From Escherichia phage Mimir124, in sequence record PQ310662.1: a stretch of 64,000 nt of DNA. One strand, given 5' to 3'. The notes under the pieces were generated by a model. The model ran no database searches. It was not told where the DNA came from and worked only from the letters and a program-made list of their open reading frames with translations. Position 1 is the first letter of the stretch, and each line of letters starts with the position of its first letter. The translations under genes and the position numbers were made by a program. This document shows, one piece after another, positions 27,094-52,953 of this stretch.

Positions 27094-27167
27094 GTCCACT
27101 TAGCTTAGACTGGGAAAGCAACCGACTAATAATCGGAAGGTCACTGGTTCAAATCCAGTAGTGGATA
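27094..27167 (+). tRNA. tRNA, canonical cloverleaf; anticodon reads AAT (Ile-type, unusual A34)
   Basis: Acceptor GTCCACT/AGTGGAT (one G-U), D-stem GCTT/AAGC with GG in D-loop, anticodon stem ACCGA/TCGG(A) with loop CTAATAA, T-arm ACTGG-TTCAAAT-CCAGT; 74 nt, CCA not encoded. Confidence 0.6.
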
Positions 27168-27402
27168 CTTATTCAGCAGTAACATAGTCCTGATTGCATA
27201 GCACTCTAAAGACAACACTGGTAAGACAGTCCAGTGGCTGCTAATGTATTGTTATTCCCCTCGACGGGAATTTCGCTAGTGAAGGTAACACTTAAAAATC
27301 CAAACCTACGTCTTACTACTATCGGGCTATCAACCCACGGTCGCTTAACCCTGTAGTGATAGTAGTTTGACGGCCTGCCTCGTTGACTGCGTTAAAGTCA
27401 CT

Positions 27403-27439
27403 AAGTCCCTCGGAGCCGTCACTCTGGGGGACTTTTTTA
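27403..27439 (+). terminator. putative terminator closing the ORF-poor region
   Basis: AAGTCCC...GGGGACTT stem with long loop followed by TTTTTTATTT. Confidence 0.4.
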
Positions 27440-27609
27440 TTTGAGAACTGTTTATTGGACGATTCATATGATTGACCTAATCTTAACCCCGTATGCCTAT
27501 GAGGTAACGGATAACCGAGGACGTAAGTCTTTGGTGTTTGCAGGTAGCGTAGCCTATAACAACGCAGTCATGTTTAAATACAAACTTAAACCACTTTATG
27601 AGGCTAATA

Positions 27610-27990
27610 ATGGCAACAGTAAGTAAAGAATCAATCGAAGCTAAGATTAAGAGCGTTTACTATTTCAATGGTGCTGATGCAGTAAAGACTGCATTCGTTA
27701 ACCCTTCTGCACTTCCGGCAGACGATTTGGCTAACCTGAGCCTGGTAACCTACTGTATTATCATCCTGGAAAACGGATTCAAAGTTGAAGGTGTATCTGC
27801 CTGTATTGACCCAACCATCTATGATGAACAAAAAGGCCGTCAGTATGCATATGAAAATGCATTCAATAAGATTTGGGAAATAGAGGGTTACCTGCTACGT
27901 CAGGCATTGCATGAGAAAGAGGAGACTACTAAGGCTCTGGCTTCCTTTGCAGAAAACAACACCTGTGATGGTGGTGGTTGCACCATTTAA
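27610..27990 (+). CDS. conserved phage protein, possibly N4 gp49-like family
   Basis: 126 aa from ATG 27610 (longest ORF starts 27598); sits shortly upstream of the giant RNAP gene; family assignment is from memory of a Pfam family name and is unverified. Confidence 0.35.
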   Translation: MATVSKESIEAKIKSVYYFNGADAVKTAFVNPSALPADDLANLSLVTYCIIILENGFKVEGVSACIDPTIYDEQKGRQYAYENAFNKIWEIEGYLLRQALHEKEETTKALASFAENNTCDGGGCTI

Positions 27991-28109
27991 CAAACAGGTG
28001 TAAGGTAGTTTTTACCGAAAGGTACTGAACTACCCAACATGTGGTAAGGCTCTAGAAGCCAAAACAAAACAAGCCCTCCTAGTGAGGGCTTTATCATTTG
28101 AGGTAGTTA

Positions 28110-28597
28110 TGTCCGAAGAAATTAAAATTCACTTCACCAACTACATTGGAACCAAGTGTGTAAATGGTTTCAAGATGAACAAGGAAACATATTGCAAACT
28201 TCGTGGCTGGGATGTGCCTGCTAATGAAGACCCATTAGAAGAAGGTTACTTAGTAGAGTACCCAGACTCTAAACCTAACCATGAGCAATTCCGTGGTTAT
28301 ATTAGCTGGTCACCAAAAGCTGCATTTGAGGCTGCATATTGTGACGTAACTAAGGGTTGTACTTTTGGTCACGCAGTAGAACTTTTGAAGTCTGGTTTTA
28401 GACTGTCCCGTAAAGGCTGGAATGGAAAAGGAATGTATATCACCTTGGTACCGGGTAAATATTGGTCCATGGCTAAACATGAGAACTCCATTTGTGAGAA
28501 ACGGGATTGGTTGGGCATCAAAACTGTTGATGACCAGTTTATGCCTTGGGTTCCATCCCAATCGGATGTATTAGCTGAAGACTGGGTAATTCTGTAG
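28110..28597 (+). CDS. DUF2829 (Tad2-like) domain protein with about 70-aa N-terminal extension; candidate immune-signal sponge
   Basis: C-terminal 90 aa: GHAVELLKSGFRLSRKGWNGKGMYITLVPG ... PWVPSQSDVLAEDWVIL matches my recollection of the DUF2829 consensus (GWNGKGM, PW..SQ.DLLAEDW); RBS GAGGTAG before ATG 28110. Confidence 0.45.
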
Positions 28598-28606
28598 GAA
28601 ACTATT

Positions 28607-28837
28607 ATGACACAAGTATCTATTACCTCTGTTGTTCGTGAATCCATTCTCAACAATACTGTCCGTACATATTCATTCGATGAAATCGCAGAGAAGCTGG
28701 GAGTAACTCGTTACGTAGCTAAAAAACTCTACTTCACATTCCTGTGGTTCCCTACGGAGGAAACATTACGGAAGATTAAAGAGACTGGTAAATTTCCAAG
28801 TGAAGGACGTAAGCCTAAAATGTGGAAAACACCCTGA
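28607..28837 (+). CDS. small HTH-like protein
   Basis: 76 aa; SFDEIAEKLGVTRYVAKKL resembles a helix-turn-helix; last + gene before convergent terminator. Confidence 0.35.
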   Translation: MTQVSITSVVRESILNNTVRTYSFDEIAEKLGVTRYVAKKLYFTFLWFPTEETLRKIKETGKFPSEGRKPKMWKTP

Positions 28838-28845
28838 CTTCTAAA

Positions 28846-28876
28846 AGCAAAGCCCCTCTAATGAGGGGCTTTTTTA
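28846..28876. terminator. bidirectional Rho-independent terminator at the junction of convergent gene blocks
   Basis: AAGCCCCTC-taatga-GGGGCTT flanked by T-run on + side and A-run on the other side (T-run for - strand). Confidence 0.65.
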
Positions 28877-28878
28877 TT

Positions 28879-31800
28879 TTAATTTACCAGGTTCATCCAA
28901 GGGTTAAGGTTGTGAGCACGAAGCCCCTGACCAAAGCCCCATGAGTAATCCAGACTACCCTTAGCAGCAATGCTAAAGATGTTGTCCTGAATAGGTAAGC
29001 CAACGTTACCAAACATGGTAGGAGTTGGAGCCAACATAGCCATAGCAGCATGCACTGGGTTATTACGAATCATGGACACTGCAACTTTTGCAGAACGAAT
29101 CTTAAAGTTGTAGAACCACATTAAACCAACACTTTCCATATACCCACGGAAGCGACCAGGTAAACGATCATAGTTAATGAACTCTTCCGTTACACGTCCT
29201 AGTGCTTCTTCACGAGTCTTACCTTTACGCTGGGTCAATTCATCATAGATGATTGCTTTAGCGATAAAGTCAGAGTACTCAACGGTCTTCTGGATACCCT
29301 GGAATAAAGCAGTATCCTTAGTGATAAGTGCATAACGTCCGGCAGTACGTACTGACTTAGGTAGCTTATCTGCCAATTTACTCATGTACTCTTGAAGTTT
29401 ACCTTCGGTAATAAGGATGTCATCACGACCGATACCAGCGTCTGCAATTGAAGAGAACTCACCAGCTTCTAACAGAGGCCAGATACTCATACGCTTATGG
29501 CTATCAGTAATGGACTGAATCTCAGCCTTAAGTTTACGAATCTGGTTCGGGTTAGTAGCTGCACGTAATTCTGCTTCTGCATCTACCTGACGCAGACGAG
29601 ACTTCAGGTACTGGTTAATCTCAGCAGTTTTCTGTGGAATGCTCTTAGCAATGTTCTTAACCGGTACGCCACGGGCAACCATCTGGTAAAGGTTAGCCAA
29701 GAAGTTAACAGCAGGTACGACTACTGACTTAACTACAATCAGAGTCTTGGCTTCTTTAACTAAGTTCTGAACCAGGTTCTCACCACCCATAGTGTACTTA
29801 TAAGCACGGTTGCCAAATACACCCAGCATAGCTTTCTTGAAGGTATCCAGGGTTTCCGGGGACCAACGAGAATTACCAGACCAGGCATCACCAACAGAAG
29901 CTGCACGATAACCAAGTGCATCATTCAGCATGTCACGACGCACCCACAGTTCGCCATCACCAAACAGGCTTTCTGCTTTCCGTCGAGTTTCACTGTTCAT
30001 CAGCTTAAGTGCATCAGCAGTTACTGGGTCCAGTTTAGAACCAAGAAGGTTCACATACTGGGACTTGTTAGAGGCAGACATCTTTATGTCGTTCTCATAC
30101 ATACTATGCAGGTTCTCAATCAGCATATCGTTGAAACGCTGTGCCTTAGCCTCTTCCACCTGACGCCCACGCCATACACCAATTGCACGTGCAAGATGGT
30201 TCTCACCTTCAATATGCTTCAGCATGTTAGGGTCAATGGATTGCTCATAAGCAACTACATTACCTTTATCATCATATACAGGCAGGAGTGGTTCATTACC
30301 ACGTTCACCACGAGCCAGTGCTTTAGTGATACGGTCTACGGAAGGCTTGTCAGTGATACGACCTGCTACCATGGAACCCATCGTAAAGCCTGTACCCAGG
30401 TCTACACCACCAGCAGTATTACGAACGTTCTGTAGGATACCCTGTGAGAATGGAGCCTGTGCCTGTACTGGTGCAAAGTAATAACTACGTGCCGGACCAC
30501 GGTTAGCAGAACTACCTTGATAAGTACCCAGACGTACATAGGACTTCTCAATCAAATCAGCAAACTGACTATCTTCAGCAACAATCAGATTAACGCCCTG
30601 TTTAGTCTCACTAGGGATATGCCCTTTGTACTGGTTCAGGGTTGCACGCATATCAGATTTGGCTTTAGCCATTTCATCTTTACGCTGACCAACCAGATAA
30701 GAAGTAGCAAAGTCCATTCCCTCAACTTCTGATTGAGCCAGTGAAGATAACATCTCACGGTCGGACTTATTCATTGCTTCCAGTGCATACAGGGTAATCA
30801 GTTTATCCAGTTGAGCTACATCTACAGTAGAACGAGCAGCCTGACGTTCACCCAGCATACGAGAGATTGCAGTAGCATTACGCAGCAGGTTATTACCGAC
30901 TGTACCATTAATCATGTACTGAGCCAGTTGCTTAGATTTACGACTAATAAGAGGCCAGTTACGACCAGCTTGTTTTTGCAAATCTGCTTCCAGCTTATTC
31001 ACTTCACGGTCAACAATCTTCTGGTCAGTCAGCAGGTCACGGATTTCAGCCAGAGACATAGTGTCACGCAGAACAGCTAAGTCAGTTTTACCCATACCAG
31101 TGTGCATTGCTTTCCACTCATCTTTAGTCAGCTTACGGCTGAACTTAGATGCGATAGTGGTGGGCAGGTGTTCACGAAATTGTTGACGGTCTGCTTGTAC
31201 CTGTGCACGAACTGCTTTAATTAAATCATATACAGAAGCATTACTCTTAGTACGACCAGTTAGGTCATTAACTAAGTCATGGAAAGGTTGCCATACCTTG
31301 CCTTGGTTCATTGCAGCCATAACACCTTCAGCTACGATTACACCATTCTTCTCTGTAGCAATGGCAGCTACCAGTTGTGCAGCATGAGCAGCACCTTTAA
31401 CCAACGGGTTCTTGGTATTAGCTGCAACTTCACGAGCACTTTCTAAAGCACGGGTGGACAGTGCATCAATAGAATCCACCAGATACTGGTTAGCACGGTC
31501 GATAGCATTACCACTAGGTATAGCAACGGAATCATAAAATGACTGTGCATTGAGGCTGGTCTGCATGATTGTCTGAGCCAGTGCATCCGTCCCTTCCTGC
31601 ACATTGGTGGCTTTGGTATCACCTGTTACACGAGCATTCAGGCTAGACATTGCAGCAGTACCGATGTTAGTCAGCATTGCATCAATGGTATTACCAGATT
31701 TCTTATCTGCTTTCATAACAGGAATGTTAGCCAGTACATTACGTACTTCTTCACTAACCATTGCCAGACCAACAAAGGTAGGCAATAAGGAAGAACGACC

Positions 31801-34800
31801 CTGTGCATCAAACTCAATGTTGTTAGCACCCATGATGGTATCAAACTTCTGTTGAGCATAGTAACGGTCAGCAGGGTTAGTGCTATCAGGGTCAGCCATG
31901 AATGCTTCAACGGTCAGGTTCTTAGTGACGTGTGCGTAGTATTCCTGTGCACGAGAAAGAGCAGCCGGACTAATAGCAGCTTCAGTAGCCAAAGCAGCAA
32001 CAATGTTAGTGAACAGTCGCTGTTCCTGCATATTCATAGTGAAGCCATGAGCCTGAACATCACGAGTTACTTTAGTTGCATTCACTACTGCATCAGAGAA
32101 CTTACCCTTACGAATTACTTGCTGTACCGGTTCTGAACCAATGTAGTTAGTAATCAGCTTATCAAAGGTCTGCCCCAACTCTTCCAGACGGGTATTGTCA
32201 CCGTATGCTTTGTTATGGAACAGAGTAGTGTCTTTGGCTACAGCAGCAGTAGGAGCCTGCCCACGCATAACTACAGAAGAGTTAAACAGTAAGCCAGAGA
32301 ACATATCATCTGCGTTAGCAGGGGCTTTCTTACGACCAAATACCAGACGTTTGATTGCTTCATATACAGCCTGAACCATGGCCTTAAGTGCAGTGGTTTT
32401 CTTCTGCTTACCAATCAATTCACGGTTGGTTAAACCCCATGCCATGTACTCATTCAGTGCAGCAGCTTTAGCCATTGCTGGTTCAATAAAGCCATTAGAC
32501 AAGTGACCATTAATGGTATTGAGTGCATCAGCATATGCTTCACGTACTGCCGGGGATTCATCCTTAACATCCAGAGTACGGAACTGGTTCATCAGGTCTT
32601 CAATATTCTGGACTGCTTCATTAGAAGTACCTTCATAGTGAGCCAGTACAGATTCAAAAGTAGAAGCATGTACCAATTCATGAACCAGAGTCTCTAAGGA
32701 AGGAGTAACTAAGTAGATGGTCTTATCTTCAAAGTTAGTCCAGCCATATGCATTACCAGCTTCAGCAGCTTCAATATCTTCCGGTGCTGGGCGAGTAATG
32801 TTCTTCTCAATAGCATAAGCATCCAGTTGAGCAGGAGTACCATAAACAACCTTGTAGTCTTTAGCAGCAAGGGATTTCTGTACTTCTTTCAATACTGCTT
32901 GCTGTTCTGGGGACATCTCTTTAGCCAGCTTAGTGATAGCAGTATTGGACAGCAGACGTACACCGGACTTCAGTACACGACCTACCTTCTCCATTGCTGG
33001 TACTTCTTTCACTGGTTCTGCTTTAGCAGCACGTACTGCATCACGACGCTTATTTAATTCAGCATCAAACAGCTCGTTCAGCTTAGCTACTTGTTGGTCT
33101 ACAGTCAGACCTTCCAGAGAAATTTTACCGTTGTTCACATAAGGAGCACCTACAGCAGCCATCTGGTCAACAGTAGTCTGTACCTGGTTCATTACTTTGT
33201 GGCGAATATCTACACCCAGAGCAATGTTACGCAGATTACGTTCAATCTGTTCAGCACCAATACGTAACAGGTCATCAGTAGCACCTTCACGTTGGTCATA
33301 TTCCAGAGCAGATTTAGCGATAGCCTGTTTGGTTTCATCAGACAGTTTGCTGAAGTCTACGTTCTTCATGAACTTAGCGAAGGAGTCATAAACATTCTTG
33401 ATAGGGTTTCCTTGCCAAGAAGTATATACAGCCTCGTTAGCTTTACGACTTGCATCAGTAATGTCATTAATACCAATGTTCATACCATCAAAGATTTTCA
33501 GGGTATTCTTCGGAGCACCCTTCATAGTAGAAAGAGTCTGCATCATCATGCCATCACCAGTACCGATGGTCATAAATGGAATACCTGCAACACCTGCCTG
33601 TGAAGGAGCATAGATGCTCATTGGCACACGCATACGGTCATCTAAGTTGGTAGCCAGTACTTGGTTAGCAACATCAGTGTTCTCACTACCAGCAATGTAG
33701 AAAGTCTGTGAGCCAGTCTCAATCATTGGAGCCAGCGGAGATAAGCTATTCTGAATTTCATTCAGTTCTTTCTGCGTTAAGAAATCACCTTTCTTCCATG
33801 TTGAGTCTTTTTCTTTTTCTGCAAGTTTAGCCTGTACTGCCTGTTGGAACATATCCTGCAATACCAGAGACTGAATCTGGGTAGCCTTCTGTAAGTTCTC
33901 AGTAGAATGCATCAGACCTTCACCAACAGTATTTCGAATACCAGTACGCATTGGTTCAACGAACAGGTGAAGCATGTTCTCTTGTAAGTTCTTCAGGGCA
34001 TTACCAGATACAGTAAACTTCTGTGGGTCTAACTTACCAGTCAGAGCACCTTCTACCTGCTGAATAGATAACTCACCCTTACGCATAACTGGAACATTGC
34101 CAGTCAGTGCTTCCATAGAAGTAAGGAAAGTATCCAGCATAGCCTGAGCATCAGCCTCAGATGCAGCCTCCTTACCAAACATTGCCATAGCCGGGGAAAT
34201 ACTAGGGTCAGCAGCACGAGCTTGCAGAACGTCGCTGAAGCGTTCGTAGATGGTATCAGTAATTGCACTAACCATCTTGCCAGCAATACCACGAGCACCA
34301 GAACCATAGATGGTAATGGTTAGTGGGTTTTTAGCGATACCACGTTTCAGGTCCAGTGTACCGTCTTCATTCAGGTTAAAGTCTTTGATGAACAGGTCCA
34401 TTAACTTCTGGAGATGATTCATCTGGCTCATAACAGGAACGTTGTTACGGTAAGTACTACGTAATTCACCAAGTGCTTGTTGCAGACCATTAGTAGATGC
34501 TTCATACAGGTCAACACTGTCATCCTGTGAGCGATGCTCGTTCATAGTCTTACCAGCTTTACCGAAGAACAAACCACCCTTAGCAGTATTCTTAATCCAG
34601 TCTGGAGTGAACTTACCACCGGTCATTAATACCATTGCGTTGATTGGGCCATTGGTTACACCATCAGCTTCAACGTACAGTGGGGTATTAAAATTGGCAC
34701 GGTCATCGCTATTCAGGTAACGGGCATATTCCATCAGAGCCATGAGAGCTACGAATGATTTATCACCACCCAAAGAGGTCTTAAGAATATCCACTGCATC

Positions 34801-37800
34801 AACTGGTAAGTAACCAGACTTATCAAACTCAACCATCATATCAACAGCAGGTTTCAGGTTACCTTCCAGAGCTTTGGTCAGCTTTTCAGACATAGCTTCA
34901 CGGGACATGTTATGTACCTTGATGCCTAATGCCTGAGCCAGACCTAACTGAAAGTCAGAGAACGCTTGGCTGTTTTCATTACTCAAGTCAATAGTAGAGA
35001 AGGTTGGCAGAATTGCTTCACGAACCAGCTTACTGGATTGTGGGTTATTCTTACCAAGCATCTGCATACGACCTACACGGGTCATGTTGTAACCATAGTG
35101 AATAGGAGTATCCAGTCCATTCTCCTGTTCCTGAACCTGATTGATTACCCCAAACAAGGAATCGTATGCCATAGACACGGACAGGTTCTTACATTCCAAT
35201 GATTTAGCAGTGTTTACGTTCAGTAGTTCAGGATTAATCGTACCAGCACCCATCAGTTCCAGAATGTTGTCACGACCCAATGCTTCATAGAAATTAACCA
35301 TCGGCATGTGTACACGGAACTCAGTAGCCTGTTCTGCTTTAAGAGCAGCTTTCTGTTCTGGAGTATTCTTGACAGCCGGGTTACGTAACTGAGTTTGAGC
35401 CACGGAAGGAATATCATCCCCGAAGTACATTTTCTCTTCCGGTTCTACGAGGACAGCTTCCTCAATAGCAGTAGGGAAATTGTTAATGGCATCGTTATCA
35501 TCCAGCTTCTCAATGGTGTACAGACCTACAGTCTTATTGGAGGCTGGGTCAATTTCAGACACATCCAGCATAGACTCTTTAACTTCACCCATCTCAATAA
35601 AGGAAGACAGAATCTCTGTAGCCATTGCCATTGGGATACCCTTGGTATAACCCAGTGGTGCATTAGGATTACGATTCAAACCCCAATAGGATTCAATCTT
35701 TTGAGCCAGTGAGTTAGTAGCTTCAACCAGGGTCTGAGCATTCTCGAAGTCAGCCAGAATACCTTCAGGTAACAGGGATGCTTCTACACCAGTAATAGCA
35801 GCTACATCTTTCATGTCTTTAATGGCAGCATTCTGTGTAGCAGTCAGTCGCCATTGCAAACCAGCAAGTACAGCAGTCTCTAGCAACTGGTCATTGAACT
35901 TAAAGGTGTCACCATCCTTCTCAACGATATTCAGCAGTTTACCACCCACCCAACGGTTAGCTTCAGTACCTTCTGCAAAACGTTTACCAACATTCTTGTT
36001 AGCAAGGAACTTAGCTAGACGGTCAGAAAGAGTAGTCTTCAGGGTTTCACCAAAATCAAACAAGTCCTGATAACGCTTAATCACATCACTTGTGAGAGCG
36101 TTATTTTCTTTTTGAGTAAATGCTTCAAAACGAGCAACAGAAGACAGTGCTTTCTTAACATCAGTCAAAGGAGACTCAGAACCAATGGTACGAGACTTAG
36201 GTTCTTCCGGTAGGGTAAATGCTTTCAGGAACTGGTTCGGTGTCTTTTCATTGTTATAGACAGGGAACACTGTTTCCATTTCTGTTTTGGTTTCGACTAC
36301 TTCCTGGGTAGTATCTACTGTTTCAGACTTAGTAGTAGAGACTTCTTCTGTTTTTGGGCTAGTCTCCATAGTAGGAGCAGTCTTATTTTCTACCACTGGT
36401 TTAGCTTTAGGCTGTACAGTAGTAGTGTCCTCTTGCACTGGTGCAGGAGTTTCATCAACCTGATTCACTGGTTCATTGGTCTGTTGGGATTGAGCAGCGT
36501 CAAGATTGCCCTGACGGAACTCTTTAACTACCTGGGCAGCAGGCTTGTCCAGACGTGAATCCAATGGGGTAACTTTCACATGAGAAACATTAAGCTCCGG
36601 GTAAGCCGTAGCAAGTGCGTTAGCAATATCAGCTACGGTTTTGGCCTCCAGTCCTACTTGCTGGGCAAACTTAACAGACTTGGTATCGTAAGGATTGACA
36701 CCGAGTCCAGTACGACTACGTACCCATTCACGGGAAGGCGAGAGAGCCTGATAATGAACAGACTTATTCTTATCCGCATTCCCAGAAATCAGATGCTCAT
36801 TCAACGCTCCGACCTTATTCTGCATGTGCTGGGCGAACTTCATAAAGTCGCTCAGATAAGCGGAGGCCAAATCGAAGTTACCAGAGTTATACGCAGAACG
36901 AATGCGTTTCGCATGTTGCAACGCAGAGTACTGTCCTTCGTTAGAACGAGACTCATCGGTTTTAATTTGTTTACTAACAATGTCTTGAGGACGTAAGCCC
37001 AGTTCTTCTGCTTTAGCGTCGAACTCACGTGCACCCTGTAACAAGGCAGCAGCAGATTGCAGGGCAGCACGTTGATGATTCCCCAGTGTAATCTTACCTT
37101 CACTTGCATGTTTCAGAACCATGTTCACTGAATCTGCATCCAGTACTTCTGGGGATACATCAGCAGCCATAGCAATGTTGTTTGCTTGGGCTTGATTAGC
37201 TTCTTCAGTAGCTTTCAGCTTACCTGCTTCAGCCTGTTCCTGAATCATGGAATGGATAGCACGGTATGCACGGAGTACTTTAGGTGTATTCTGTACGTTA
37301 GCCATCAGGCCAGAGAACTGGTCTACGATAGTAGCAGCAGGGGAACCTTGTTCCAGATTAGCCAGAGCACCTGGGTCACGGTTAATGAAGCTATCCATAG
37401 ACATAATGTTGTCATACATCTGGATTGCAGCTTCCATTTGAACGTTAGGATCTTCAGCAGTATTAACCAGGTCAGCCATCTTCTGAATAGCTTCTACACG
37501 GTTAGTGGAACCAGAAACAGCTTCACGGATTACCAGGTTAGCTTGTTCCAACTCTACTGGGTCGAACTTCATTGCCTGAGTTAAGTCAGCAGCATACTGA
37601 GTAGCAGCAGCTTTCTCTTCTGGAGTGATATCCATTGCATCTACTGCTTCCTGTACAGTTGCTTGTGCCTGCTCTGCCTGAGCAGCAGCTTCCTGTGCAG
37701 CAGCGTTAACCGTAGCATCAGCTACAGGGGATGCTTGTTCATTACGCTTAGCAACTTCTTCCCCACGTTGAACCAGGATGTTAGTAAGAGGAGATGCAGC

Positions 37801-39228
37801 TTTTGCTAATGTTTTACCAACCAGAGAAGCACCAGCCAGAGTAGTACGTAGAGCAGGACCAGCAGAAGCACCAACTGCTTTAACAGTTGCACCTGGAGCT
37901 TGAGCAACCCCAGCACTACCGAAGCCATAAAGTGCACCAAGACCTGCTTGCTCACCAACCCCTTTGAGAGTGTCACGGGATGCATCAACATTTTCCTTGA
38001 TTGCACGGTTCTGGGCATACTGACCGAAGCCGGATTGAATACCCTCTTCTACAGTTTCACGGAGCATGTTAGAACCAGCACCAGCCAGTGAACCTACCTT
38101 AAGTGGGTTAAGTTCAAAACGAGATACCAGTGGGCCGGTAGCAGCAGCAACTGGAGCAGTTAAGCCAGCAGCAATAATACCTGTTTCAGATGCAGTCTGA
38201 CGACGTGCTTCATCAGGGGATAATCCATCAGCAATATGTTGTTGGTAAACAGGAGACTTACTTGCCAAATCTTGATGGGACATCTTCATGATTTCAGAAG
38301 CAGTCTGTTGGTATGCACCACCAGCTTCCATACCACCAATTGCAATAGCAGGTGCAGCAACACGACCAGCAGACAATGCAACCTGTGCAGGGCGTGAACC
38401 TAACTCAGCAGCTAAGGTAATACCCTTAACAGCTTTATCACCACCTACCATTACTTTACCAAGTGCAGATACACCACGGATAAGTGGACCACCAGTAAAG
38501 AGGGAACCAACACCTTCACTCAGTCCGTCGGAAGCAGCCATACCATTATCAAGTGTATTAGCAACAGAATCGAAAGCATCACGACCAATGCGAGACAAGG
38601 AGGCAACCAAATCGCTCTCCCCATTTTTGACGTCTTGTTCATAGAGTTTCTGGTTCTTTTGAGCAGAAATCTGGTTCTGATTCTGAACAACTTTACGGGT
38701 AGCATTCAGTGCATCAGATTGTAAATTGTGTACACCTTCATTCAACCAATCCATCCCGGAAGCAATGGATGCCCCGGCATTATCATTGACCAGACCTGTG
38801 CCAAGAGCAGCAATGCCCCCAAGGGTATTAGCAACACCAAGACCAACACCAGAAAGAGTATCGCCAAATGCTTCTGCGTTAGTACGTTGTTTAGATAAGT
38901 CCTGACGTACAACATCAGCAGCATTAGCTCGGCTATTAAGAATTTGTAGACCTTGCTCATTACCGTACTTATTAATGATTTCTAATGGAGAGGCTTGAGT
39001 GAAATCTGCCTGAAGTGAACCCGGTTCGAATGCACCGATTCCAAGATTACCTACTCGTCCAGTCTGGAGATTGTAAGCGTTCTCTGGGGTTAATTGGAAA
39101 GGGCTTTGCCCTTGTGCAGCTTGCTTCTGAGAGGTTGCAGTAGAGACATCGACTTGCTTAGCAGTAGTGATGCTGTCTGCGAAACCTGCCAGACGGTCAA
39201 ATGTTGACATAGCATGTTTCCTGTTCAA
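28879..39228 (-). CDS. giant virion-encapsidated RNA polymerase (N4 vRNAP-like)
   Basis: Single uninterrupted 3449-aa ORF, a size class essentially unique to N4-like phage virion RNAP; position at start of the leftward structural block. Confidence 0.75.
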   Translation of the reverse strand: MNRKHAMSTFDRLAGFADSITTAKQVDVSTATSQKQAAQGQSPFQLTPENAYNLQTGRVGNLGIGAFEPGSLQADFTQASPLEIINKYGNEQGLQILNSRANAADVVRQDLSKQRTNAEAFGDTLSGVGLGVANTLGGIAALGTGLVNDNAGASIASGMDWLNEGVHNLQSDALNATRKVVQNQNQISAQKNQKLYEQDVKNGESDLVASLSRIGRDAFDSVANTLDNGMAASDGLSEGVGSLFTGGPLIRGVSALGKVMVGGDKAVKGITLAAELGSRPAQVALSAGRVAAPAIAIGGMEAGGAYQQTASEIMKMSHQDLASKSPVYQQHIADGLSPDEARRQTASETGIIAAGLTAPVAAATGPLVSRFELNPLKVGSLAGAGSNMLRETVEEGIQSGFGQYAQNRAIKENVDASRDTLKGVGEQAGLGALYGFGSAGVAQAPGATVKAVGASAGPALRTTLAGASLVGKTLAKAASPLTNILVQRGEEVAKRNEQASPVADATVNAAAQEAAAQAEQAQATVQEAVDAMDITPEEKAAATQYAADLTQAMKFDPVELEQANLVIREAVSGSTNRVEAIQKMADLVNTAEDPNVQMEAAIQMYDNIMSMDSFINRDPGALANLEQGSPAATIVDQFSGLMANVQNTPKVLRAYRAIHSMIQEQAEAGKLKATEEANQAQANNIAMAADVSPEVLDADSVNMVLKHASEGKITLGNHQRAALQSAAALLQGAREFDAKAEELGLRPQDIVSKQIKTDESRSNEGQYSALQHAKRIRSAYNSGNFDLASAYLSDFMKFAQHMQNKVGALNEHLISGNADKNKSVHYQALSPSREWVRSRTGLGVNPYDTKSVKFAQQVGLEAKTVADIANALATAYPELNVSHVKVTPLDSRLDKPAAQVVKEFRQGNLDAAQSQQTNEPVNQVDETPAPVQEDTTTVQPKAKPVVENKTAPTMETSPKTEEVSTTKSETVDTTQEVVETKTEMETVFPVYNNEKTPNQFLKAFTLPEEPKSRTIGSESPLTDVKKALSSVARFEAFTQKENNALTSDVIKRYQDLFDFGETLKTTLSDRLAKFLANKNVGKRFAEGTEANRWVGGKLLNIVEKDGDTFKFNDQLLETAVLAGLQWRLTATQNAAIKDMKDVAAITGVEASLLPEGILADFENAQTLVEATNSLAQKIESYWGLNRNPNAPLGYTKGIPMAMATEILSSFIEMGEVKESMLDVSEIDPASNKTVGLYTIEKLDDNDAINNFPTAIEEAVLVEPEEKMYFGDDIPSVAQTQLRNPAVKNTPEQKAALKAEQATEFRVHMPMVNFYEALGRDNILELMGAGTINPELLNVNTAKSLECKNLSVSMAYDSLFGVINQVQEQENGLDTPIHYGYNMTRVGRMQMLGKNNPQSSKLVREAILPTFSTIDLSNENSQAFSDFQLGLAQALGIKVHNMSREAMSEKLTKALEGNLKPAVDMMVEFDKSGYLPVDAVDILKTSLGGDKSFVALMALMEYARYLNSDDRANFNTPLYVEADGVTNGPINAMVLMTGGKFTPDWIKNTAKGGLFFGKAGKTMNEHRSQDDSVDLYEASTNGLQQALGELRSTYRNNVPVMSQMNHLQKLMDLFIKDFNLNEDGTLDLKRGIAKNPLTITIYGSGARGIAGKMVSAITDTIYERFSDVLQARAADPSISPAMAMFGKEAASEADAQAMLDTFLTSMEALTGNVPVMRKGELSIQQVEGALTGKLDPQKFTVSGNALKNLQENMLHLFVEPMRTGIRNTVGEGLMHSTENLQKATQIQSLVLQDMFQQAVQAKLAEKEKDSTWKKGDFLTQKELNEIQNSLSPLAPMIETGSQTFYIAGSENTDVANQVLATNLDDRMRVPMSIYAPSQAGVAGIPFMTIGTGDGMMMQTLSTMKGAPKNTLKIFDGMNIGINDITDASRKANEAVYTSWQGNPIKNVYDSFAKFMKNVDFSKLSDETKQAIAKSALEYDQREGATDDLLRIGAEQIERNLRNIALGVDIRHKVMNQVQTTVDQMAAVGAPYVNNGKISLEGLTVDQQVAKLNELFDAELNKRRDAVRAAKAEPVKEVPAMEKVGRVLKSGVRLLSNTAITKLAKEMSPEQQAVLKEVQKSLAAKDYKVVYGTPAQLDAYAIEKNITRPAPEDIEAAEAGNAYGWTNFEDKTIYLVTPSLETLVHELVHASTFESVLAHYEGTSNEAVQNIEDLMNQFRTLDVKDESPAVREAYADALNTINGHLSNGFIEPAMAKAAALNEYMAWGLTNRELIGKQKKTTALKAMVQAVYEAIKRLVFGRKKAPANADDMFSGLLFNSSVVMRGQAPTAAVAKDTTLFHNKAYGDNTRLEELGQTFDKLITNYIGSEPVQQVIRKGKFSDAVVNATKVTRDVQAHGFTMNMQEQRLFTNIVAALATEAAISPAALSRAQEYYAHVTKNLTVEAFMADPDSTNPADRYYAQQKFDTIMGANNIEFDAQGRSSLLPTFVGLAMVSEEVRNVLANIPVMKADKKSGNTIDAMLTNIGTAAMSSLNARVTGDTKATNVQEGTDALAQTIMQTSLNAQSFYDSVAIPSGNAIDRANQYLVDSIDALSTRALESAREVAANTKNPLVKGAAHAAQLVAAIATEKNGVIVAEGVMAAMNQGKVWQPFHDLVNDLTGRTKSNASVYDLIKAVRAQVQADRQQFREHLPTTIASKFSRKLTKDEWKAMHTGMGKTDLAVLRDTMSLAEIRDLLTDQKIVDREVNKLEADLQKQAGRNWPLISRKSKQLAQYMINGTVGNNLLRNATAISRMLGERQAARSTVDVAQLDKLITLYALEAMNKSDREMLSSLAQSEVEGMDFATSYLVGQRKDEMAKAKSDMRATLNQYKGHIPSETKQGVNLIVAEDSQFADLIEKSYVRLGTYQGSSANRGPARSYYFAPVQAQAPFSQGILQNVRNTAGGVDLGTGFTMGSMVAGRITDKPSVDRITKALARGERGNEPLLPVYDDKGNVVAYEQSIDPNMLKHIEGENHLARAIGVWRGRQVEEAKAQRFNDMLIENLHSMYENDIKMSASNKSQYVNLLGSKLDPVTADALKLMNSETRRKAESLFGDGELWVRRDMLNDALGYRAASVGDAWSGNSRWSPETLDTFKKAMLGVFGNRAYKYTMGGENLVQNLVKEAKTLIVVKSVVVPAVNFLANLYQMVARGVPVKNIAKSIPQKTAEINQYLKSRLRQVDAEAELRAATNPNQIRKLKAEIQSITDSHKRMSIWPLLEAGEFSSIADAGIGRDDILITEGKLQEYMSKLADKLPKSVRTAGRYALITKDTALFQGIQKTVEYSDFIAKAIIYDELTQRKGKTREEALGRVTEEFINYDRLPGRFRGYMESVGLMWFYNFKIRSAKVAVSMIRNNPVHAAMAMLAPTPTMFGNVGLPIQDNIFSIAAKGSLDYSWGFGQGLRAHNLNPWMNLVN

Positions 39229-39269: not shown

Positions 39270-39296
39270 TTAAAGAAAAAAGCCCCGTAGGGCTTT
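39270..39296 (-). terminator. Rho-independent terminator on - strand between upstream virion gene and vRNAP gene
   Basis: Reverse complement reads AGCCC-tacg-GGGCT followed by TTTTTT. Confidence 0.5.
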
Positions 39297-39304
39297 TATT
39301 AGTA

Positions 39305-41044
39305 TTACCGATTTTGCCTTGGTTGCATATACTCAGGCAGTCCCTGTGCCTGACGTAAGTACCTTGCAGCACGCTCTTCGTCTTCCTTAGCTCGTGCTCT
39401 ATCCACACTAGCCTGTGACCGGAAACCCCTTGGAGCCAGGTTAGCTGGGTCAGCTTGAACCTGTGCCTGTGCAGCTTGGAGCATTGCAGCAGCTTTAGTA
39501 ACAGCCTCCTGACGTGCAGGTAAAAGAGCAGTAAGACCACTTTGTCCGGTGTTAATCTTGTTCTGGGTATTTGCCAGTGCAGCTACAGCAGCATCATACG
39601 CAGTCTGTGCTGCCTGAATATTCTGCATAGCCTGAGCACGACCTAGGTTACGAACACTACCTTCCAGTGGTTCTCCCCGTTTCACACCCTCAATTAACTG
39701 TTCTACCTGACGGTCATTAAGACGCATACCATTACCGGCTTCATTGGTAATGAATGGGTTAACTGCATCAATAGCACGACTAATATAACCTTCCGGTACA
39801 CCAGTCTGTGCACGCTGCATAACAGCAGCAGCCATAGCTGGTGACATATTCCCACGCTGGGAAATATCATTCAGTCGGTTCAGTACCCAGTTACGGTCAG
39901 CACCTTTAAAATCACCTTCCAACAAACGGTTAGCAATCTCACCTACTGGGGTATTATCAGTGACAGTACCGAGGAAGTCAGTATTAAGACTACCGGTGTT
40001 ATCCTGCATAGAACGAGTACCAATCATACCCTGAGCCAGAGTAGATACTGCCTGATTGCCCTGATTATTCTGAACCATAGCAAGTGGGTCAGCCCCTACT
40101 TCAGCTTGGGCAATAACAGGTTTAATCTCTTCCCATGTCATATCCTTATAAGCACCAGGGGTAGAGTTAGGCAGTGCAGCCCAAGTATCTTTAAGGTTGC
40201 CATTCTTACGAGATTCGAAGATAGCCTTACCAATCTTATCCTGGTTCTCAGGAGAAAGGGGCTGGCTTTGCCAATCTGAACCAAGAACTTTGGGAGCGAA
40301 GTCTTTCAGTGTAGCTTGGTTAATCTGGAACGCACCAACAGGTGAAGCACCCTGGTTAGACTTCATACCATCCTGGTGTTTAATTACATCACCAATACTC
40401 ATTTGAGTAATAGGAGTAGATGTACCAGCAAACTGGTAAGTAACATCGTAAGGGGAACCCTGACGAGTACCAGCAGTACCAGGAGCAGATGCAGCACCTA
40501 CGCCATTGCCATATACACCCGGGTAAGCATTAGCCAGTAATCCCTGCAAGCGTGCCTGTGCAACTGGGGACAGGTTCTTACTATATGCTTCTGCCAACAG
40601 ACGGGCATCGTTGGGGTTCTCAGCACCACGGGTAATCTGTGACATTACACCCATAGCTGCCTGACTATCGGCATCATTACGTTGAGCAACACCCAAATCA
40701 AAACGGTTCTGTGCTTGACTAATAGCCTGACCTTGTTGAGTCAGAAGTGTACCTGCTCTCTCATCCAGATTCTGGAGAGTACGCTGGTTTACCAGAGAAG
40801 GGTCAACTCCCTGAAACAATGCACCTGATGCCAAAGCATTACGATACTCAGTTGGGTCTTGATATTGCATAGCATTCATCATGACGGCATTGCCAGCCTC
40901 CTGCTTGGCAGCGTTCTGGAAATTACCCAGTGCATCACTTAAGCCGGAGGTGGCGTTACCAATCATGCTACCAAATGTGCGAATGCTGTCACCAACTCCA
41001 GAGAAGTTAGGTGCATCAACATTACGCCATGTTATCTGACTCAT
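39305..41044 (-). CDS. virion-associated protein (function unknown)
   Basis: 579-aa ORF in structural block next to vRNAP. Confidence 0.4.
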   Translation of the reverse strand: MSQITWRNVDAPNFSGVGDSIRTFGSMIGNATSGLSDALGNFQNAAKQEAGNAVMMNAMQYQDPTEYRNALASGALFQGVDPSLVNQRTLQNLDERAGTLLTQQGQAISQAQNRFDLGVAQRNDADSQAAMGVMSQITRGAENPNDARLLAEAYSKNLSPVAQARLQGLLANAYPGVYGNGVGAASAPGTAGTRQGSPYDVTYQFAGTSTPITQMSIGDVIKHQDGMKSNQGASPVGAFQINQATLKDFAPKVLGSDWQSQPLSPENQDKIGKAIFESRKNGNLKDTWAALPNSTPGAYKDMTWEEIKPVIAQAEVGADPLAMVQNNQGNQAVSTLAQGMIGTRSMQDNTGSLNTDFLGTVTDNTPVGEIANRLLEGDFKGADRNWVLNRLNDISQRGNMSPAMAAAVMQRAQTGVPEGYISRAIDAVNPFITNEAGNGMRLNDRQVEQLIEGVKRGEPLEGSVRNLGRAQAMQNIQAAQTAYDAAVAALANTQNKINTGQSGLTALLPARQEAVTKAAAMLQAAQAQVQADPANLAPRGFRSQASVDRARAKEDEERAARYLRQAQGLPEYMQPRQNR

Positions 41045-41521: not shown

Positions 41522-44156
41522 GGTCAGTATTAAGGGTCATGTCAGAGTAGCTGCCAATCATGTTTAAAGACAAGTCAGCTATATCCGAACCAGTCATAAG
41601 AGTACGTGATAAGAAAGAATCCATCGACTCCATTGACACGAATTGCATAGGGTCAATTACACCCTGCCCAGCAGTACCAAACATTTCTTCATACTGCTTA
41701 TTGATTGCCATCATATCAGTATTGTACTGCTGCATTACACTCTCTGCTTTCTGAATAGTAGCAGCCGTGGATGCATTAATATACTGACTAATACCATTAC
41801 CTACTGAGCTGGTAAGCTGCATGATGTTTTGGGCATTCATCATTTCACCTGCTAAGGTAGATAATGATGTACCAGTAGACAAAGCAGTACCAACATTCAT
41901 AGCTACCATTGAAGCAATAGCAGCAACGATAAAGCCTAGTTTATCTCCAAACAGTGAAGTGGATACTTTTGTGACAAGGGATACCAGAATCATTCCAGCA
42001 ATGGCATTTGCTACAGCACCAACTATTACAGCAGCTAATCCAACAAAACCTAGTGATGCACCAACTGCACCATATGCCCCAAGTATACCTGCACCACCAG
42101 CACCAGCAGTAAATACCGATACAACGACAGCAACCACAACAACTACAATCTTAAAGGCAGAAGACTGATACCACTTTTTCTTAACCTTTTTATATGAGTT
42201 CATTACTAAGTAAGAACAGGCAGTAGATAACTGAGTACTACGAACCAGTGACATTGAACGGTAGATGTTAGTGTGTAGTGGAATGATGAAACCACTCTCT
42301 TCTGCATCACTCATTGCTTCAGCAACATCAATGTTTACTGATTTATTTTTATATACCCTGTTATTGTGGTGTAGACCCAGTACTCTAAGTTTACGGTAAG
42401 AGTTATTACCATCCTGCCAAAGTAATTCATACTCCTGCATAGAGTAAAACGTGGGGGTAATCTCTAGTTTTTTGCTATCACTTGTACGTATGTTCTTGCG
42501 AGTAAGAGTTATATCTCCTGCATACCTGGCTCGTAGTTGTCCCTGTTTAGCACCAGCCCATGCTTGTCCTGAGTGGGTAGTTTCAGATGCGTAGTTCCAG
42601 CCAATAGTCATGTCGTATTTGTAATGTTTACTACTATGCACCCTAAACTCACGCTTAGGTATGACTGGGTATTCCGGTAGCGATGGAGGTGTTCCAACAA
42701 TCTGGCCTTCCTGCCTGTTCCACCATGCTACATAGTCATCAACTGCATCATTAGCTGCCTGATAACCTGCAATGACTGCCTCCAAAGTAGGATAAGTTGG
42801 GTCGGGTGGGAATGCTTCAGTAGCCATCTGAAAGAAACGGTAGATGTATTCCTTAGCAGTATCCTCTGGTGTATTAAGAGATACACCGAATGAGCCACAG
42901 ATGTATTGAATATCCCCAATGTCATCATTCTTCTTAAGCTCTGATGTTACTTTATTGAGTTTTCCTCCAGTAGCTTTATAAAGAGCCTTCTTGCAGTGAG
43001 GGTAGATTGGGTCATTCTCTACCCATTGTTTATCGTTCCTTATTGGGATGAATGGGTAGAACCGGTTATCAGTAGCCTCAGTTTCAAACAGTGAGTCTAG
43101 TGCAACGTTACCAGAGTTCTGTTTATAGATAAGCATCTTAGGTGTACCAGCAGCAGCCATTTCTGTATCAGTACGAGTAGTCTGTGATGAATACTTGCGA
43201 ACCAGTGACTCTGTAGTTGTAGTAATTGTGTCGGTGCGAGTAACACCACCACCTATATCAACTACATTGGTAGTTACAGCAGTACTGGATTGAATCTCAC
43301 CAAACTTTGTATGAGTCATTACTCTGTCAGATACAACTACAGTCACATCATCAGGTTTCTCAGTGAATCCTCTACGATAAACCTTAACGTAAGAGTTCCA
43401 GTTATCCACACTTGGTTCTGTGACAGTGCTGTCTTCATCCGGCCTACCATCAGAGTATACAGAATGAGTCTGTATAGTCTTGGTAAGGTTAGTTGTATTA
43501 GCAGTCATATCACTTGAGATGGTAGTCCATAGCAAAGTGGAGGGTAAGTCATCCTCATCATCATAGACAGTAGTCGGACCTTCTACTGGTGGATTGGTAG
43601 TAGGTGACTTATAGAATGTGTAGTCAGCATAGAGATACAAAGCACCTGGTTCAAAGTTAGTAGGTGTGAATGTAATAGTAGAGCCTCCATCTAAGGAGGT
43701 CATAGTAATTTCATTGGTATCTTCATCAATGTCTATGTCGAATCGTTCCATGATTCGACTTGGGGCATTCTCATAAAGATACTGGTCACACCATTGTTCA
43801 AAGTCAGCAAAGCCAATCTCTGCTGCCTGAACATAGACAGATTCCCCAGCAGGTGGAGTAATTTGACCCTCTATAACAGTAGGGTCAATCTTAGCCAGTA
43901 CGCCTAATGAAGAGCCTGCCATACCAACTTCTGAATCATAGTGGTTCTTACTCCAGCTGGAGAACAGTCGCATACGAATACCTGGTCCATTCAGATAACT
44001 ATCAGAGATAGTATCTGCCATAGTGAATCCTGTATTGGAAATAATGTTGCCAATGACTACAGTCTTCATATAGTTAGGACGTTTATGTATATCCCCTGCC
44101 ATGTTATAGACAGAGGATGCTACGTATACTTTGGTCTTCCCACTGAATAAGCCCAT
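41514..44156 (-). CDS. large virion protein with Gly/Ala-rich hydrophobic C-terminal region (candidate ejection/channel protein)
   Basis: 880 aa; C-terminal third contains VVVVAVVVSVFTAGAGGAGILGAYGAVGASLGFVGLAAVIVGAVANAIAGMILV and further hydrophobic segments. Confidence 0.4.
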   Translation of the reverse strand: MGLFSGKTKVYVASSVYNMAGDIHKRPNYMKTVVIGNIISNTGFTMADTISDSYLNGPGIRMRLFSSWSKNHYDSEVGMAGSSLGVLAKIDPTVIEGQITPPAGESVYVQAAEIGFADFEQWCDQYLYENAPSRIMERFDIDIDEDTNEITMTSLDGGSTITFTPTNFEPGALYLYADYTFYKSPTTNPPVEGPTTVYDDEDDLPSTLLWTTISSDMTANTTNLTKTIQTHSVYSDGRPDEDSTVTEPSVDNWNSYVKVYRRGFTEKPDDVTVVVSDRVMTHTKFGEIQSSTAVTTNVVDIGGGVTRTDTITTTTESLVRKYSSQTTRTDTEMAAAGTPKMLIYKQNSGNVALDSLFETEATDNRFYPFIPIRNDKQWVENDPIYPHCKKALYKATGGKLNKVTSELKKNDDIGDIQYICGSFGVSLNTPEDTAKEYIYRFFQMATEAFPPDPTYPTLEAVIAGYQAANDAVDDYVAWWNRQEGQIVGTPPSLPEYPVIPKREFRVHSSKHYKYDMTIGWNYASETTHSGQAWAGAKQGQLRARYAGDITLTRKNIRTSDSKKLEITPTFYSMQEYELLWQDGNNSYRKLRVLGLHHNNRVYKNKSVNIDVAEAMSDAEESGFIIPLHTNIYRSMSLVRSTQLSTACSYLVMNSYKKVKKKWYQSSAFKIVVVVVAVVVSVFTAGAGGAGILGAYGAVGASLGFVGLAAVIVGAVANAIAGMILVSLVTKVSTSLFGDKLGFIVAAIASMVAMNVGTALSTGTSLSTLAGEMMNAQNIMQLTSSVGNGISQYINASTAATIQKAESVMQQYNTDMMAINKQYEEMFGTAGQGVIDPMQFVSMESMDSFLSRTLMTGSDIADLSLNMIGSYSDMTLNTDLA

Positions 44157-44157
44157 A

Positions 44158-45000
44158 TTAGTTCAGCCCGTTGTTAGACTTCAGCTTGGTCAAAATGGTA
44201 TCAATACTTGCGTTAGTGAAACCATTTGGTGGATTCAAGCCTTCATCAATAGTCTTCTGAGTAATCCATGCATCAGTAAACAATTTAGATGCTTTAACTT
44301 CTGCATCACGTTGATATGAAGTAATCTGCTGGTCATACAACTCCTTCTGCTTACCAATACTACCTTTGATTGGTAAAGAGTCAGAACGTGTTTCCATAGT
44401 CTGTGCACGTTGTACTTCATACTGCTCTTGCAGTAAACGCCCCTGAGCTGGAAGAATCTCATCCATATTGAACTTTGCAGCACAGTAATTCTGGCCCTCA
44501 ATAGAGAGTTTCATCTTAGTTAAGGCATACTCAGACTTAGTAGACAGTGCCTGTACCTTAGCAAGTACAAACTGAGCCTTAGCTGTTGCCAAACCAACAC
44601 GTGCAGTAACTGCCTGAATCTGTGCCAGTGCTGCCTGGAAGTAAGCAGAGTCACGACCCAGAAGGAATTGAACAGCGTTACCCATACATGCTTCCAAGGT
44701 AGCAATATAGGCTTTAGTGTACTCACCACCTGTAATTCGGTTTTCTTTAAACTCAGCTTTAAGGTGCTTACTAGCAGATTCCATTAATGCATCAAATACA
44801 CCAGAGCCGCCTACTTCACGAGTAGTAAGGGATTCGTTAGTGATTCGGGGTACTTCTGCAAAGATTGGTGAATTATCCCCACCAGGGATATCCCATTCAG
44901 GTCCAGTCATATCAATGTTGGGAAGGGTAAAATCATCACCCTTGGTTAACTCTTCTAGGAGTCGGTTAGCTTCTACCTCAGCAGAACAAGACATAATCAT
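44158..45000 (-). CDS. hypothetical structural-block protein
   Basis: 280-aa ORF; coiled-coil-like central region. Confidence 0.35.
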
Positions 45001-45070
45001 TCCTCTTGGTTCAAAAAGAAACGGCCCACGGAGTTACCCCAGTGAGCCGTGTTGAACTGTAGCTTATACG

Positions 45071-45712
45071 TTAATCGTTCAGGCTACCAGCAGCAATCTG
45101 TGCTTGAGCCAGTTGAGCCAATTCTGCTTCAGTCAACGGAGGCAATACTTCAATGGAGAACTCACGTGCTTCAGTTGCACGGATATCCGGTAAGCCATTC
45201 TTACCTTTACGAGTAGTAATGTTGATGAACTTACGTTCTTTAAGGAACTCGTAGATACAGTACGGGATATGATAACCATTGTCGGTTACTTCACCGAACG
45301 GAACAAACTTACGTACAGTACCCATATATTCATTAGCTACGGTGATAATCTCACCTGGCAGGTCTTTCTTCTTAGGGTCAAGGTTCTGGATACGTACACG
45401 AATCAGCCGAGTCTGTTCTGCACGAATCTTCTGACCCAGGGTCATCTTCTTAACACCTGCTTCTTGTTTAGCACCCAGTGGGTTAACAGCATCTTCTTCT
45501 ACTTCTGGTTCATCGCTTGCTTGTGCAGCTTCAATCTTCTCACGAAGTTTCTCAACGGAGATGTTGTTAGAGAACTTAATATTCATCAACGTTGCACGTT
45601 GCTTAAGAACTTCAAGTTCACTAGGCATTGCAATATCGTTAACGGTATCTTCGTTGCCCTGTACGTTCAGTTCTACGTCAGTGGTCGGTTTATCGTTAAT
45701 GCTCATGTTCAT
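45071..45712 (-). CDS. hypothetical head-related protein
   Basis: 213-aa ORF immediately downstream (in transcription) of the capsid gene. Confidence 0.35.
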   Translation of the reverse strand: MNMSINDKPTTDVELNVQGNEDTVNDIAMPSELEVLKQRATLMNIKFSNNISVEKLREKIEAAQASDEPEVEEDAVNPLGAKQEAGVKKMTLGQKIRAEQTRLIRVRIQNLDPKKKDLPGEIITVANEYMGTVRKFVPFGEVTDNGYHIPYCIYEFLKERKFINITTRKGKNGLPDIRATEAREFSIEVLPPLTEAELAQLAQAQIAAGSLND

Positions 45713-45779
45713 ATTTCCTGTGGTTCATTTAGTTTTATTAAGAGGGGGACTAATGTCCCCCTTGTTTTATTTCGGACTA

Positions 45780-46982: not shown

Positions 46983-46998
46983 ATCATCTTATTCCTGT

Positions 46999-48219: not shown

Positions 48220-48238
48220 AGGAAATATCTCCGGTTAA

Positions 48239-48583
48239 TTATTCGTCTTCAGGTTCAGCACGAACTGCGTCGAGTTCTTCTTCTACCTGTAGAATAACGT
48301 CAGCTTCGTTTTCGCCCATACGAATAGCGAGGTCAAGCCAACGACGTAAGTGACCAGCAGCTTGAGCCATGTTCAATGCATCTGCACGGTTATTAGCTTC
48401 AAGCAGTGGGTCACCAGACTCTTGCACGTAACGTGCACAATCTTCCGTACAGAACTGGCGAAGGATTACTTTACGGAACAGTGGATTCTCCAGAAGTTTA
48501 CGTACATCTTCTGCATGTGCAACTGCACCTTTAGCAGCTTCCAGTCGATGTTCCAGTCCAGCGATTGTTGATTCTTTACTCAT
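48239..48583 (-). CDS. hypothetical protein
   Basis: 114-aa ORF between portal and scaffold-like genes. Confidence 0.35.
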   Translation of the reverse strand: MSKESTIAGLEHRLEAAKGAVAHAEDVRKLLENPLFRKVILRQFCTEDCARYVQESGDPLLEANNRADALNMAQAAGHLRRWLDLAIRMGENEADVILQVEEELDAVRAEPEDE

Positions 48584-48596
48584 GTGAAGGTCTGCC

Positions 48597-50867: not shown

Positions 50868-50875
50868 AGTTATTC

Positions 50876-52592: not shown

Positions 52593-52684
52593 ACGGGACG
52601 TATCAGAAGAGTCTGACTGAAAGATAATACTGATTTAGGTTTGTAGAGGGAAGTGAGAAAAGCCTCCCGCATGGGAGGCTTATT

Positions 52685-52945: not shown

Positions 52946-52953
52946 AAATAACC

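Follow-up and report, generated by a model that had tools for sequence, protein, structure and literature searches.

Transcription of the coliphage N4 genome runs in two directions, with early and middle genes read rightward by phage polymerases and late genes read leftward by host sigma-70 RNA polymerase (RNAP) activated by the N4 SSB (PMC4496689). Bacterial RNAP and the T7-type single-subunit RNAPs both use hairpin-dependent intrinsic termination (PMC11347151), and the class I terminators of T7-like phages, such as T7 T-phi, consist of a GC hairpin followed by a U-run that single-subunit RNAPs read (PMC11347151). T-phi is used in one direction, and T7 reference terminators have only weak antisense activity (PMC10204088). 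Between convergent bacterial genes, single hairpins flanked by A- and U-tracts have been described as bidirectional terminators for two convergent units (Ju et al. 2019, as cited in PMC9163698). Within the Schitoviridae, the Pseudomonas phage LUZ7 has four regions of bidirectional termination, most of which separate convergent genes (PMC9163698), and for one of its terminators, T50, the 3' end is placed at 43803 (+) (Table 1, PMC10204088; Lammens/Putzeys et al.). T50 gives 90% average termination in ONT-cappable-seq during infection, and late in infection it terminates transcripts of both strands (PMC10204088). In a trap assay its antisense termination is 99.4% in E. coli, 97.6% in P. aeruginosa, and 96.9% in P. 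putida, and the authors call it a canonical bidirectional intrinsic terminator with flanking A- and U-rich stretches (PMC10204088).

The DNA analysed here is a 64,000 nt stretch of Escherichia phage Mimir124 (PQ310662.1; referred to as the window), a G7C-like, N4-like coliphage (Gamaleyavirus, Schitoviridae) that is 94% identical to NAN33P5 and SP5M across positions 27300–30300. A gene map of ORFs of at least 120 aa shows one + strand block (1020–28837) and one - strand block (28879–61144), and a hairpin at 28849–28872 is therefore at the sole convergence point in the window. This confirms the position given in an earlier note, in which the hairpin was placed where the + strand genes meet the 3' end of the virion RNA polymerase (vRNAP) gene. 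The + (early/middle-type) block closes with a gene for 76 aa (28607–28837) that matches phrog_9565 (E 2e-31), has no Pfam match, and is listed in SP5M as a hypothetical protein. The - (late) block ends with the vRNAP gene (28879–39210), which has its TAA stop at 28881–28879 and a likely ATG start at 39210, giving a product of 3443 aa equal to that in the SP5M annotation; the longest ORF (28879–39228, -; 3449 aa) has a TTG start at 39228. The gap between the stops at 28837 (+) and 28879 (-) is 41 nt long and contains the hairpin, with the stem starting 11 nt past the + strand stop and, on the opposite strand, 6 nt past the vRNAP stop.

The hairpin is a perfect inverted repeat, which reads AAAGCCCCTC-TAAT-GAGGGGCTTT and has a 10 bp stem and a 4 nt loop (28859–28862), such that it folds equally well on either strand. 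The stem consists of a 7 bp GC-rich core, GCCCCTC/GAGGGGC (28852–28858 and 28863–28869), with six G-C pairs and one U-A pair, together with three outer A-U pairs that are part of the flanking A-run on the left and T-run on the right. The complete core with its loop (GCCCCTC-TAAT-GAGGGGC, 28852–28869, both strands) is present as a single copy in the window. The + strand continues directly past the hairpin with TTTATTTTAA, and the tails beyond the stem have the form T6AT4 on the + strand and T3GCT4 on the - strand. Counted from the GC core, the + strand tail is TTTTTTATTT with T at nine of ten positions, and the U-tract of + strand transcripts (28870–28880, TTTTTTATTTT) has its final bases overlapping the vRNAP stop codon. 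The equivalent tract for - strand transcripts (28842–28851) reads TTTGCTTTTA on that strand, is the complement of the A-rich run before the hairpin on the + strand, and has T at seven of ten positions, broken by GC (UUUGCUUUU). The description in the earlier note of a 9 bp GC-rich stem with T-runs readable on both strands is thus confirmed with small corrections: there is a GC-rich hairpin and it is T-rich on both sides, but the stem is 10 bp long with only seven of these in the GC-rich core, and the two runs are unequal, with that on the - strand interrupted.

RNA folding of the hairpin yields -18.3 kcal/mol on the + strand (z -4.71, none of 200 shuffles as good) and -18.2 kcal/mol on the - strand (z -3.91, one of 200 shuffles as good), and it is the minimum-energy structure in 43–56 nt contexts on both strands. 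Over all of these folds the energy is about -18 to -19 kcal/mol, with z from -3.8 to -4.7. The motif GCCCCTC-N3-6-GAGGGGC is found once in the window against an expectation of 0.00 from 100 dinucleotide shuffles. A strict scan (perfect stem of at least 7 bp, at least five G-C pairs, a loop of 3–8 nt, and at least six T in the 10 nt after the GC core) returned 10 strand-sites at seven places in the window, compared with a mean of 0.13 and a maximum of 1 in 60 dinucleotide shuffles; three of these places (28073–28089, 28852–28869, and 52662–52679) are two-sided, and no two-sided site was found in any shuffle. Short palindromes do occur in general, and this is all that favours a chance origin for a functionless palindrome at 28849–28872; such an origin is refuted by the folding, strict-scan and motif-count controls, and also by the comparison with relatives (below), in which hairpins of differing stem sequence are enriched about 90-fold at this position, and we regard it as extremely improbable. 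An Rfam scan of the whole window at the gathering threshold gave a tRNA at 27094–27167 as its only match and none at the hairpin, as expected because generic terminators do not constitute an Rfam family. Both strands therefore carry what is looked for in an intrinsic terminator, that is, a stable GC-rich hairpin with a U-rich tract 3' of the stem, although the tract is weaker on the - strand.

The closest experimental counterpart is T50, which in NC_013691 reads AAAAAGAAA-GGGGAGC-ATTA-GCTCCCC-TTCTTCTTTA. It is located between ORF72 (+, ending at 43790) and the vRNAP gene gp073 (-, 43804–54015), with its 3' end one base before the vRNAP coding sequence, and so, in a distant subfamily, it occupies the position that corresponds to the window hairpin. 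The two share a 7 bp GC-rich core, a 4 nt A/T loop (ATTA in T50), and A-rich sequence before and U-rich sequence after the stem, and they fold comparably in 43 nt contexts (-19.1 and -18.9 kcal/mol for the window, -19.7 and -22.3 kcal/mol for T50). The numbers of U in the 10 nt after the core are nine (+) and seven (-) in the window, compared with seven (+) and eight (vRNAP sense, UUUCUUUUUG) in T50. There are also differences: the stem sequences are unlike (GGGGAGC/GCUCCCC in T50, GCCCCUC/GAGGGGC in the window), LUZ7 has another host and belongs to another subfamily (identity at the vRNAP C-terminus is as low as about 27% for the related Litunavirus CMS1), and the annotated LUZ7 ORF72 runs into the T50 hairpin whereas the upstream ORF in the window ends before the stem. 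T50 has been shown experimentally to be bidirectional, including in E. coli. The T50 3' end is 7 nt past its GC core, and from this we would predict 3' ends in the window near 28876 (+) and near 28845 (-).

The hairpin has direct orthologues in close relatives, and as a terminator it is already known, being annotated in G7C, PhAPEC5, and SP5M. It is labelled 'terminator' on both strands in SP5M (MT682708, 38028–38070), terminator on both strands in PhAPEC5 (KF192075, 36206–36244; an ARNold prediction), and 'rho-independent terminator' on both strands in G7C (HQ259105, 36187–36224); Pokken, in a more distant genus, has a two-strand terminator annotated at the same spot, and Pollock has a one-strand terminator. 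The G7C, PhAPEC5, and SP5M sites, which are computational predictions made independently by their annotators with ARNold and similar programs, are true orthologues positioned after gp50 at an equal distance from the vRNAP stop, and in a four-way alignment their stems and flanks are identical to those of the window, and they differ only in the loop and at a few positions of the tails. The 76-aa gene is missing from PhAPEC5, where the sequence on the left is unrelated; even so, the hairpin is kept beside the vRNAP stop and is therefore inherited together with the 3' end of that gene.

These comparisons bear on the main alternative among the rivals, in which the hairpin is effectively a one-way terminator: + strand transcription would be ended efficiently at U6AU4, and the - strand side would be weak or irrelevant, with the A-run merely following the vRNAP stop. 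The interrupted - strand tail agrees with this, as does a consensus terminator scan that called the + strand at 28849–28872 (10 pairs, six G-C pairs, 4 nt loop) and made no - strand call for the same hairpin. Most phage terminators are weak when assayed in reverse (PMC10204088), and the stem follows the vRNAP stop by 6 nt; at such a distance termination in E. coli is repressed by ribosomes (PMC4824070). On the other side, the - strand tail of the window is nearly as U-rich (seven of ten) as the vRNAP-sense tail of T50 (UUUCUUUUUG, eight of ten), for which 97–99% activity is seen, ARNold and other predictors call a - strand terminator in G7C, PhAPEC5, and SP5M, and T-rich tails in the vRNAP sense have been retained at 29 of the 35 related loci. 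We therefore think a one-way terminator unlikely. With the GC-rich hairpin, the A-run before it and T-run after it, the position between convergent genes, the annotation of relatives, and LUZ7 T50 all in agreement, the bidirectional terminator proposed in the earlier note is supported, and we consider it highly probable that the one point of convergence in this N4-like genome is occupied, at 28849–28872, by a canonical bidirectional intrinsic (Rho-independent) terminator.

A wider set of loci was gathered using the last 299 aa of the vRNAP, yielding 30 IMG/VR loci of which 23 entered the count; the addition of 12 GenBank phages from other genera gave 35 loci, with identities at the vRNAP C-terminus from 99% down to about 26%. 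The convergent arrangement is common to all 12 annotated GenBank records. A two-sided perfect hairpin is located within 50 nt past the vRNAP stop at 29 of the 35 loci, and at one further locus (L040) there is a one-sided hairpin. The density of sites is 30 per 1,750 nt after the vRNAP stop, as against 23 in the other 123,448 nt that these loci comprise. We gauged conservation of structure by this positional enrichment instead of by covariation statistics on a homology alignment, because the stem is invariant, and so uninformative, among close relatives, and the distant ones cannot be aligned base by base. The 30 tabulated hairpins represent 22 distinct full stems (such as GCCCCTC, GGCTCCC, GGCCACC, GGGGAACC, CCCCCGG, GGGGGAGC, and GCCCCA), all of them fully paired, with two to four types of Watson-Crick pair at each stem position; as the stems were found by a search for perfect pairing, the positional enrichment and not the pair counts is the valid statistic. 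The flanking 10-mers of the family hairpins are A-rich upstream and T-rich downstream, and these flanks are kept even though the loop varies freely, including among near-identical phages. In nearly all Schitoviridae the 5' arm of the hairpin is only about 4–12 nt past the vRNAP stop. Across Schitoviridae, what is kept after the vRNAP stop is thus the architecture, and not the sequence.

Six of the 35 loci, L040 with its one-sided hairpin among them, are without a two-sided site, and the terminator is therefore not indispensable. L023, which was not counted, has an imperfect stem that still folds, and in Burkholderia HN02 and Rhizobium RHph_I1_6, which have no two-sided site, there is no gap between the vRNAP gene and the convergent genes, which abut or overlap it. 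An identical stem, GCCCCTC/GAGGGGC, is found in N4 and in Klebsiella, Achromobacter, Delftia, and Pectobacterium phages. We considered the stem as a sequence signal specific to Schitoviridae and rejected this, as the same motif (AAGCCCCTC-N3-5-GAGGGGCTT) is present in at least 120 IMG/VR stretches, with contigs of about 4 to 185 kb among the matches listed; it is a generic terminator stem.

The loop at 28859–28862 was compared with those of nine related loci (L004, L007, L013–L015, L017, L030, L033, and L034). On the + strand it reads TAAT in the window, ATTA in PhAPEC5, and TTTT in G7C, and is shorter in SP5M. In the vRNAP sense, the ATTA of the window and L004 is the exact reverse complement of the TAAT in N4, PhAPEC5, L007, and L033, and the TATT of L013, L015, and L034 is likewise the exact reverse complement of the AATA in L014. 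Among close relatives the entire 4 nt loop has been inverted on at least two occasions, with the perfect palindrome around it unchanged, which is explained better by one template-switch or cruciform event than by four point mutations; the inversions also show that loop orientation is not under selection.

That the palindrome is perfect, is mutationally active in this manner, and is situated at the edge of a variable gene region could point to an element acting at the DNA level, either an N4-type vRNAP hairpin promoter or a cruciform for recombination or replication. N4 vRNAP promoters have a 5–7 bp stem, a 3 nt loop, recognised G/purines at -8, -10, and -11, a conserved GC-rich heptamer, and a downstream motif, and are found at the early genome end (PMC4496689, PMC6950046), and the KP8 early promoters read ...GCTCCGC....TATGGA (PMC6950046). 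An N4-type vRNAP promoter at 28849–28872 was rejected on the basis of its 4 nt, A/T-only loop and lack of the GCTCCGC...TATGG motif. The stem is moreover generic, as seen from its occurrence in the many IMG/VR contigs of widely differing size noted above, and a DNA-level role is in our view most improbable. An N4-type early promoter pattern derived from four KP8 promoters has its sole match in the window at 63689–63704, where the sequence ACATGC-TCC-GCATGT followed by TATGGA (63684–63705, +) conforms exactly to the pattern of N4-type early hairpin promoters for vRNAP that is seen in KP8 P1–P4. The early, left genome end is therefore near the right end of the window, and the source sequence is either permuted or extends to the terminal repeat.

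As a bidirectional intrinsic terminator, the hairpin would be expected to act as follows. Whichever strand is read, the nascent RNA would form the same 10 bp hairpin directly upstream of a U-rich tract, and the hairpin together with the weak rU-dA hybrid would release the transcript. From the + side this would end the replication/accessory block, read, by analogy with N4, by the T7-like phage RNAPII, and from the - side it would end the late operon after its last gene, that of the vRNAP, transcribed, by the same analogy, by host sigma-70 RNAP activated by the phage SSB. Which polymerase arrives from each side is thus proposed from N4, and the converging enzymes would probably be of different families; in this respect the locus differs from the bacterial pairs of convergent units, and from a head-on collision model built on E. 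coli RNAP alone (bioRxiv 10.1101/2022.10.23.513370). That an N4-type RNAPII would stop at such a terminator is likewise suggested by the behaviour of T7-like enzymes and by the efficiency of T50 in the + direction, and the relevance of T-phi, a similar GC hairpin and U-run, to N4-type RNAPII is to be read in the same way. Both polymerases would presumably be kept from antisense transcription of the opposing block, both mRNAs would acquire a protective 3' stem-loop, and the + and - strand transcripts, given their predicted 3' ends, would overlap by roughly 30 nt across the hairpin. Our literature search found no RNA 3'-end data for N4 or any Gamaleyavirus, this phage included, and we infer from the comparisons above that its own transcripts end at the hairpin, as well as the efficiency to be expected in each direction.

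Terminator hairpins also stabilise upstream mRNA (PMC10204088), and the LUZ7 authors note a possible processing origin for some mapped 3' ends (PMC9163698), so that the hairpin could mainly be a 3' stabiliser, or a processing stop against 3'-to-5' exonucleases, for one of the mRNAs or for both, with transcription ending elsewhere. Such a function has no need for the A- and U-tracts that are conserved on both sides of the stem across the family, and T50 lowers expression of a downstream reporter, which reflects termination and not stabilisation alone. We therefore judge this very unlikely as the main role, and the stabiliser and terminator roles are in any case compatible with each other.

The proximity of the stop codons may influence how well the proposed bidirectional terminator works. 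When a stop codon is 5 nt away from lambda tR2 in E. coli, termination falls from about 90% to under 10% through ribosome occlusion (PMC4824070), and with stops at 6 and 11 nt from the window hairpin, its efficiency in vivo could therefore be lower, above all in the late direction. T50 has equally tight stop spacing, yet native transcripts of both strands are stopped. One unlikely extension is that the terminator is gated by translation in the late direction, with the ribosome that ends vRNAP translation occluding the stem. If this were so, a tightly coupled host RNAP would read through, giving antisense RNA over the last + strand genes, including a Tad2-like gene, and an uncoupled RNAP, or the untranslated T7-like RNAPII from the other side, would stop; one hairpin would then switch between middle and late programmes in a way that depends on both the polymerase and translation.

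Several other features of the window are situated around this terminator. Two genes upstream, the ORF at 28082–28597 (+, 171 aa) has a Thoeris anti-defence 2-like domain (PF11195, E 8e-24; phrog_872) and is a homologue of N4 gp49 according to the PhAPEC5 annotation (PhAPEC5_53); its neighbour at 27598–27990 matches Pfam PF13876 (Phage_gp49_66). In the relatives Moonfish and 24-32N, Tad2-like and anti-CRISPR genes are annotated in the same variable region. The region 27300–28840 is mosaic, with many relatives aligning in two to four pieces that cover 72–92% of the query, and in PhAPEC5 the unrelated sequence continues as far as the hairpin. This variable accessory-gene cassette has its fixed right edge at the terminator. 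Behind the tRNA (Ile in relatives) there is a terminator-like hairpin of 13 pairs at 27403–27434, and a two-sided hairpin at 28071–28091 (28073–28089 in the strict scan) precedes the Tad2-like gene, such that three successive + strand terminator-like sites (27403–27434, 28071–28091, and 28849–28872) are present in the final 1.5 kb of the + block, and the last accessory genes may therefore have stepwise lower expression. Within the late (-) block there is a two-sided terminator-like hairpin at 52662–52679, and a terminator-like site at 45744–45761 that scores on the + strand only, although it lies inside the - block.

A further terminator-like hairpin at 39278–39297 (-; AAAAGCCC-TACG-GGGCTTTT then TTCTTTAA; -14 kcal/mol, z -3.1) is positioned between the gene for a gp51-like virion protein (39305–41044, phrog_6126) and the vRNAP start, so that a hairpin stands on either side of the vRNAP gene. 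A terminator is annotated at the matching spot in PhAPEC5 (47020–47043). As N4 virions carry only 1–2 copies of vRNAP (PMC3715699), the hairpin at 39278–39297 may reduce vRNAP expression relative to the upstream structural genes.

Identification of the hairpin at 28849–28872 as a probable bidirectional terminator matters little beyond correct annotation. In a G7C-like phage it separates the replication/accessory genes, which run rightward, from the late genes, which run leftward, and it predicts the end points of both sets of transcripts. At about 40 nt it is a compact candidate bidirectional terminator for E. coli that is closely analogous to T50, and LUZ7 T50 already outperforms standard parts. 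Being conserved beside the vRNAP stop family-wide, it also offers a landmark for orienting Schitoviridae contigs.
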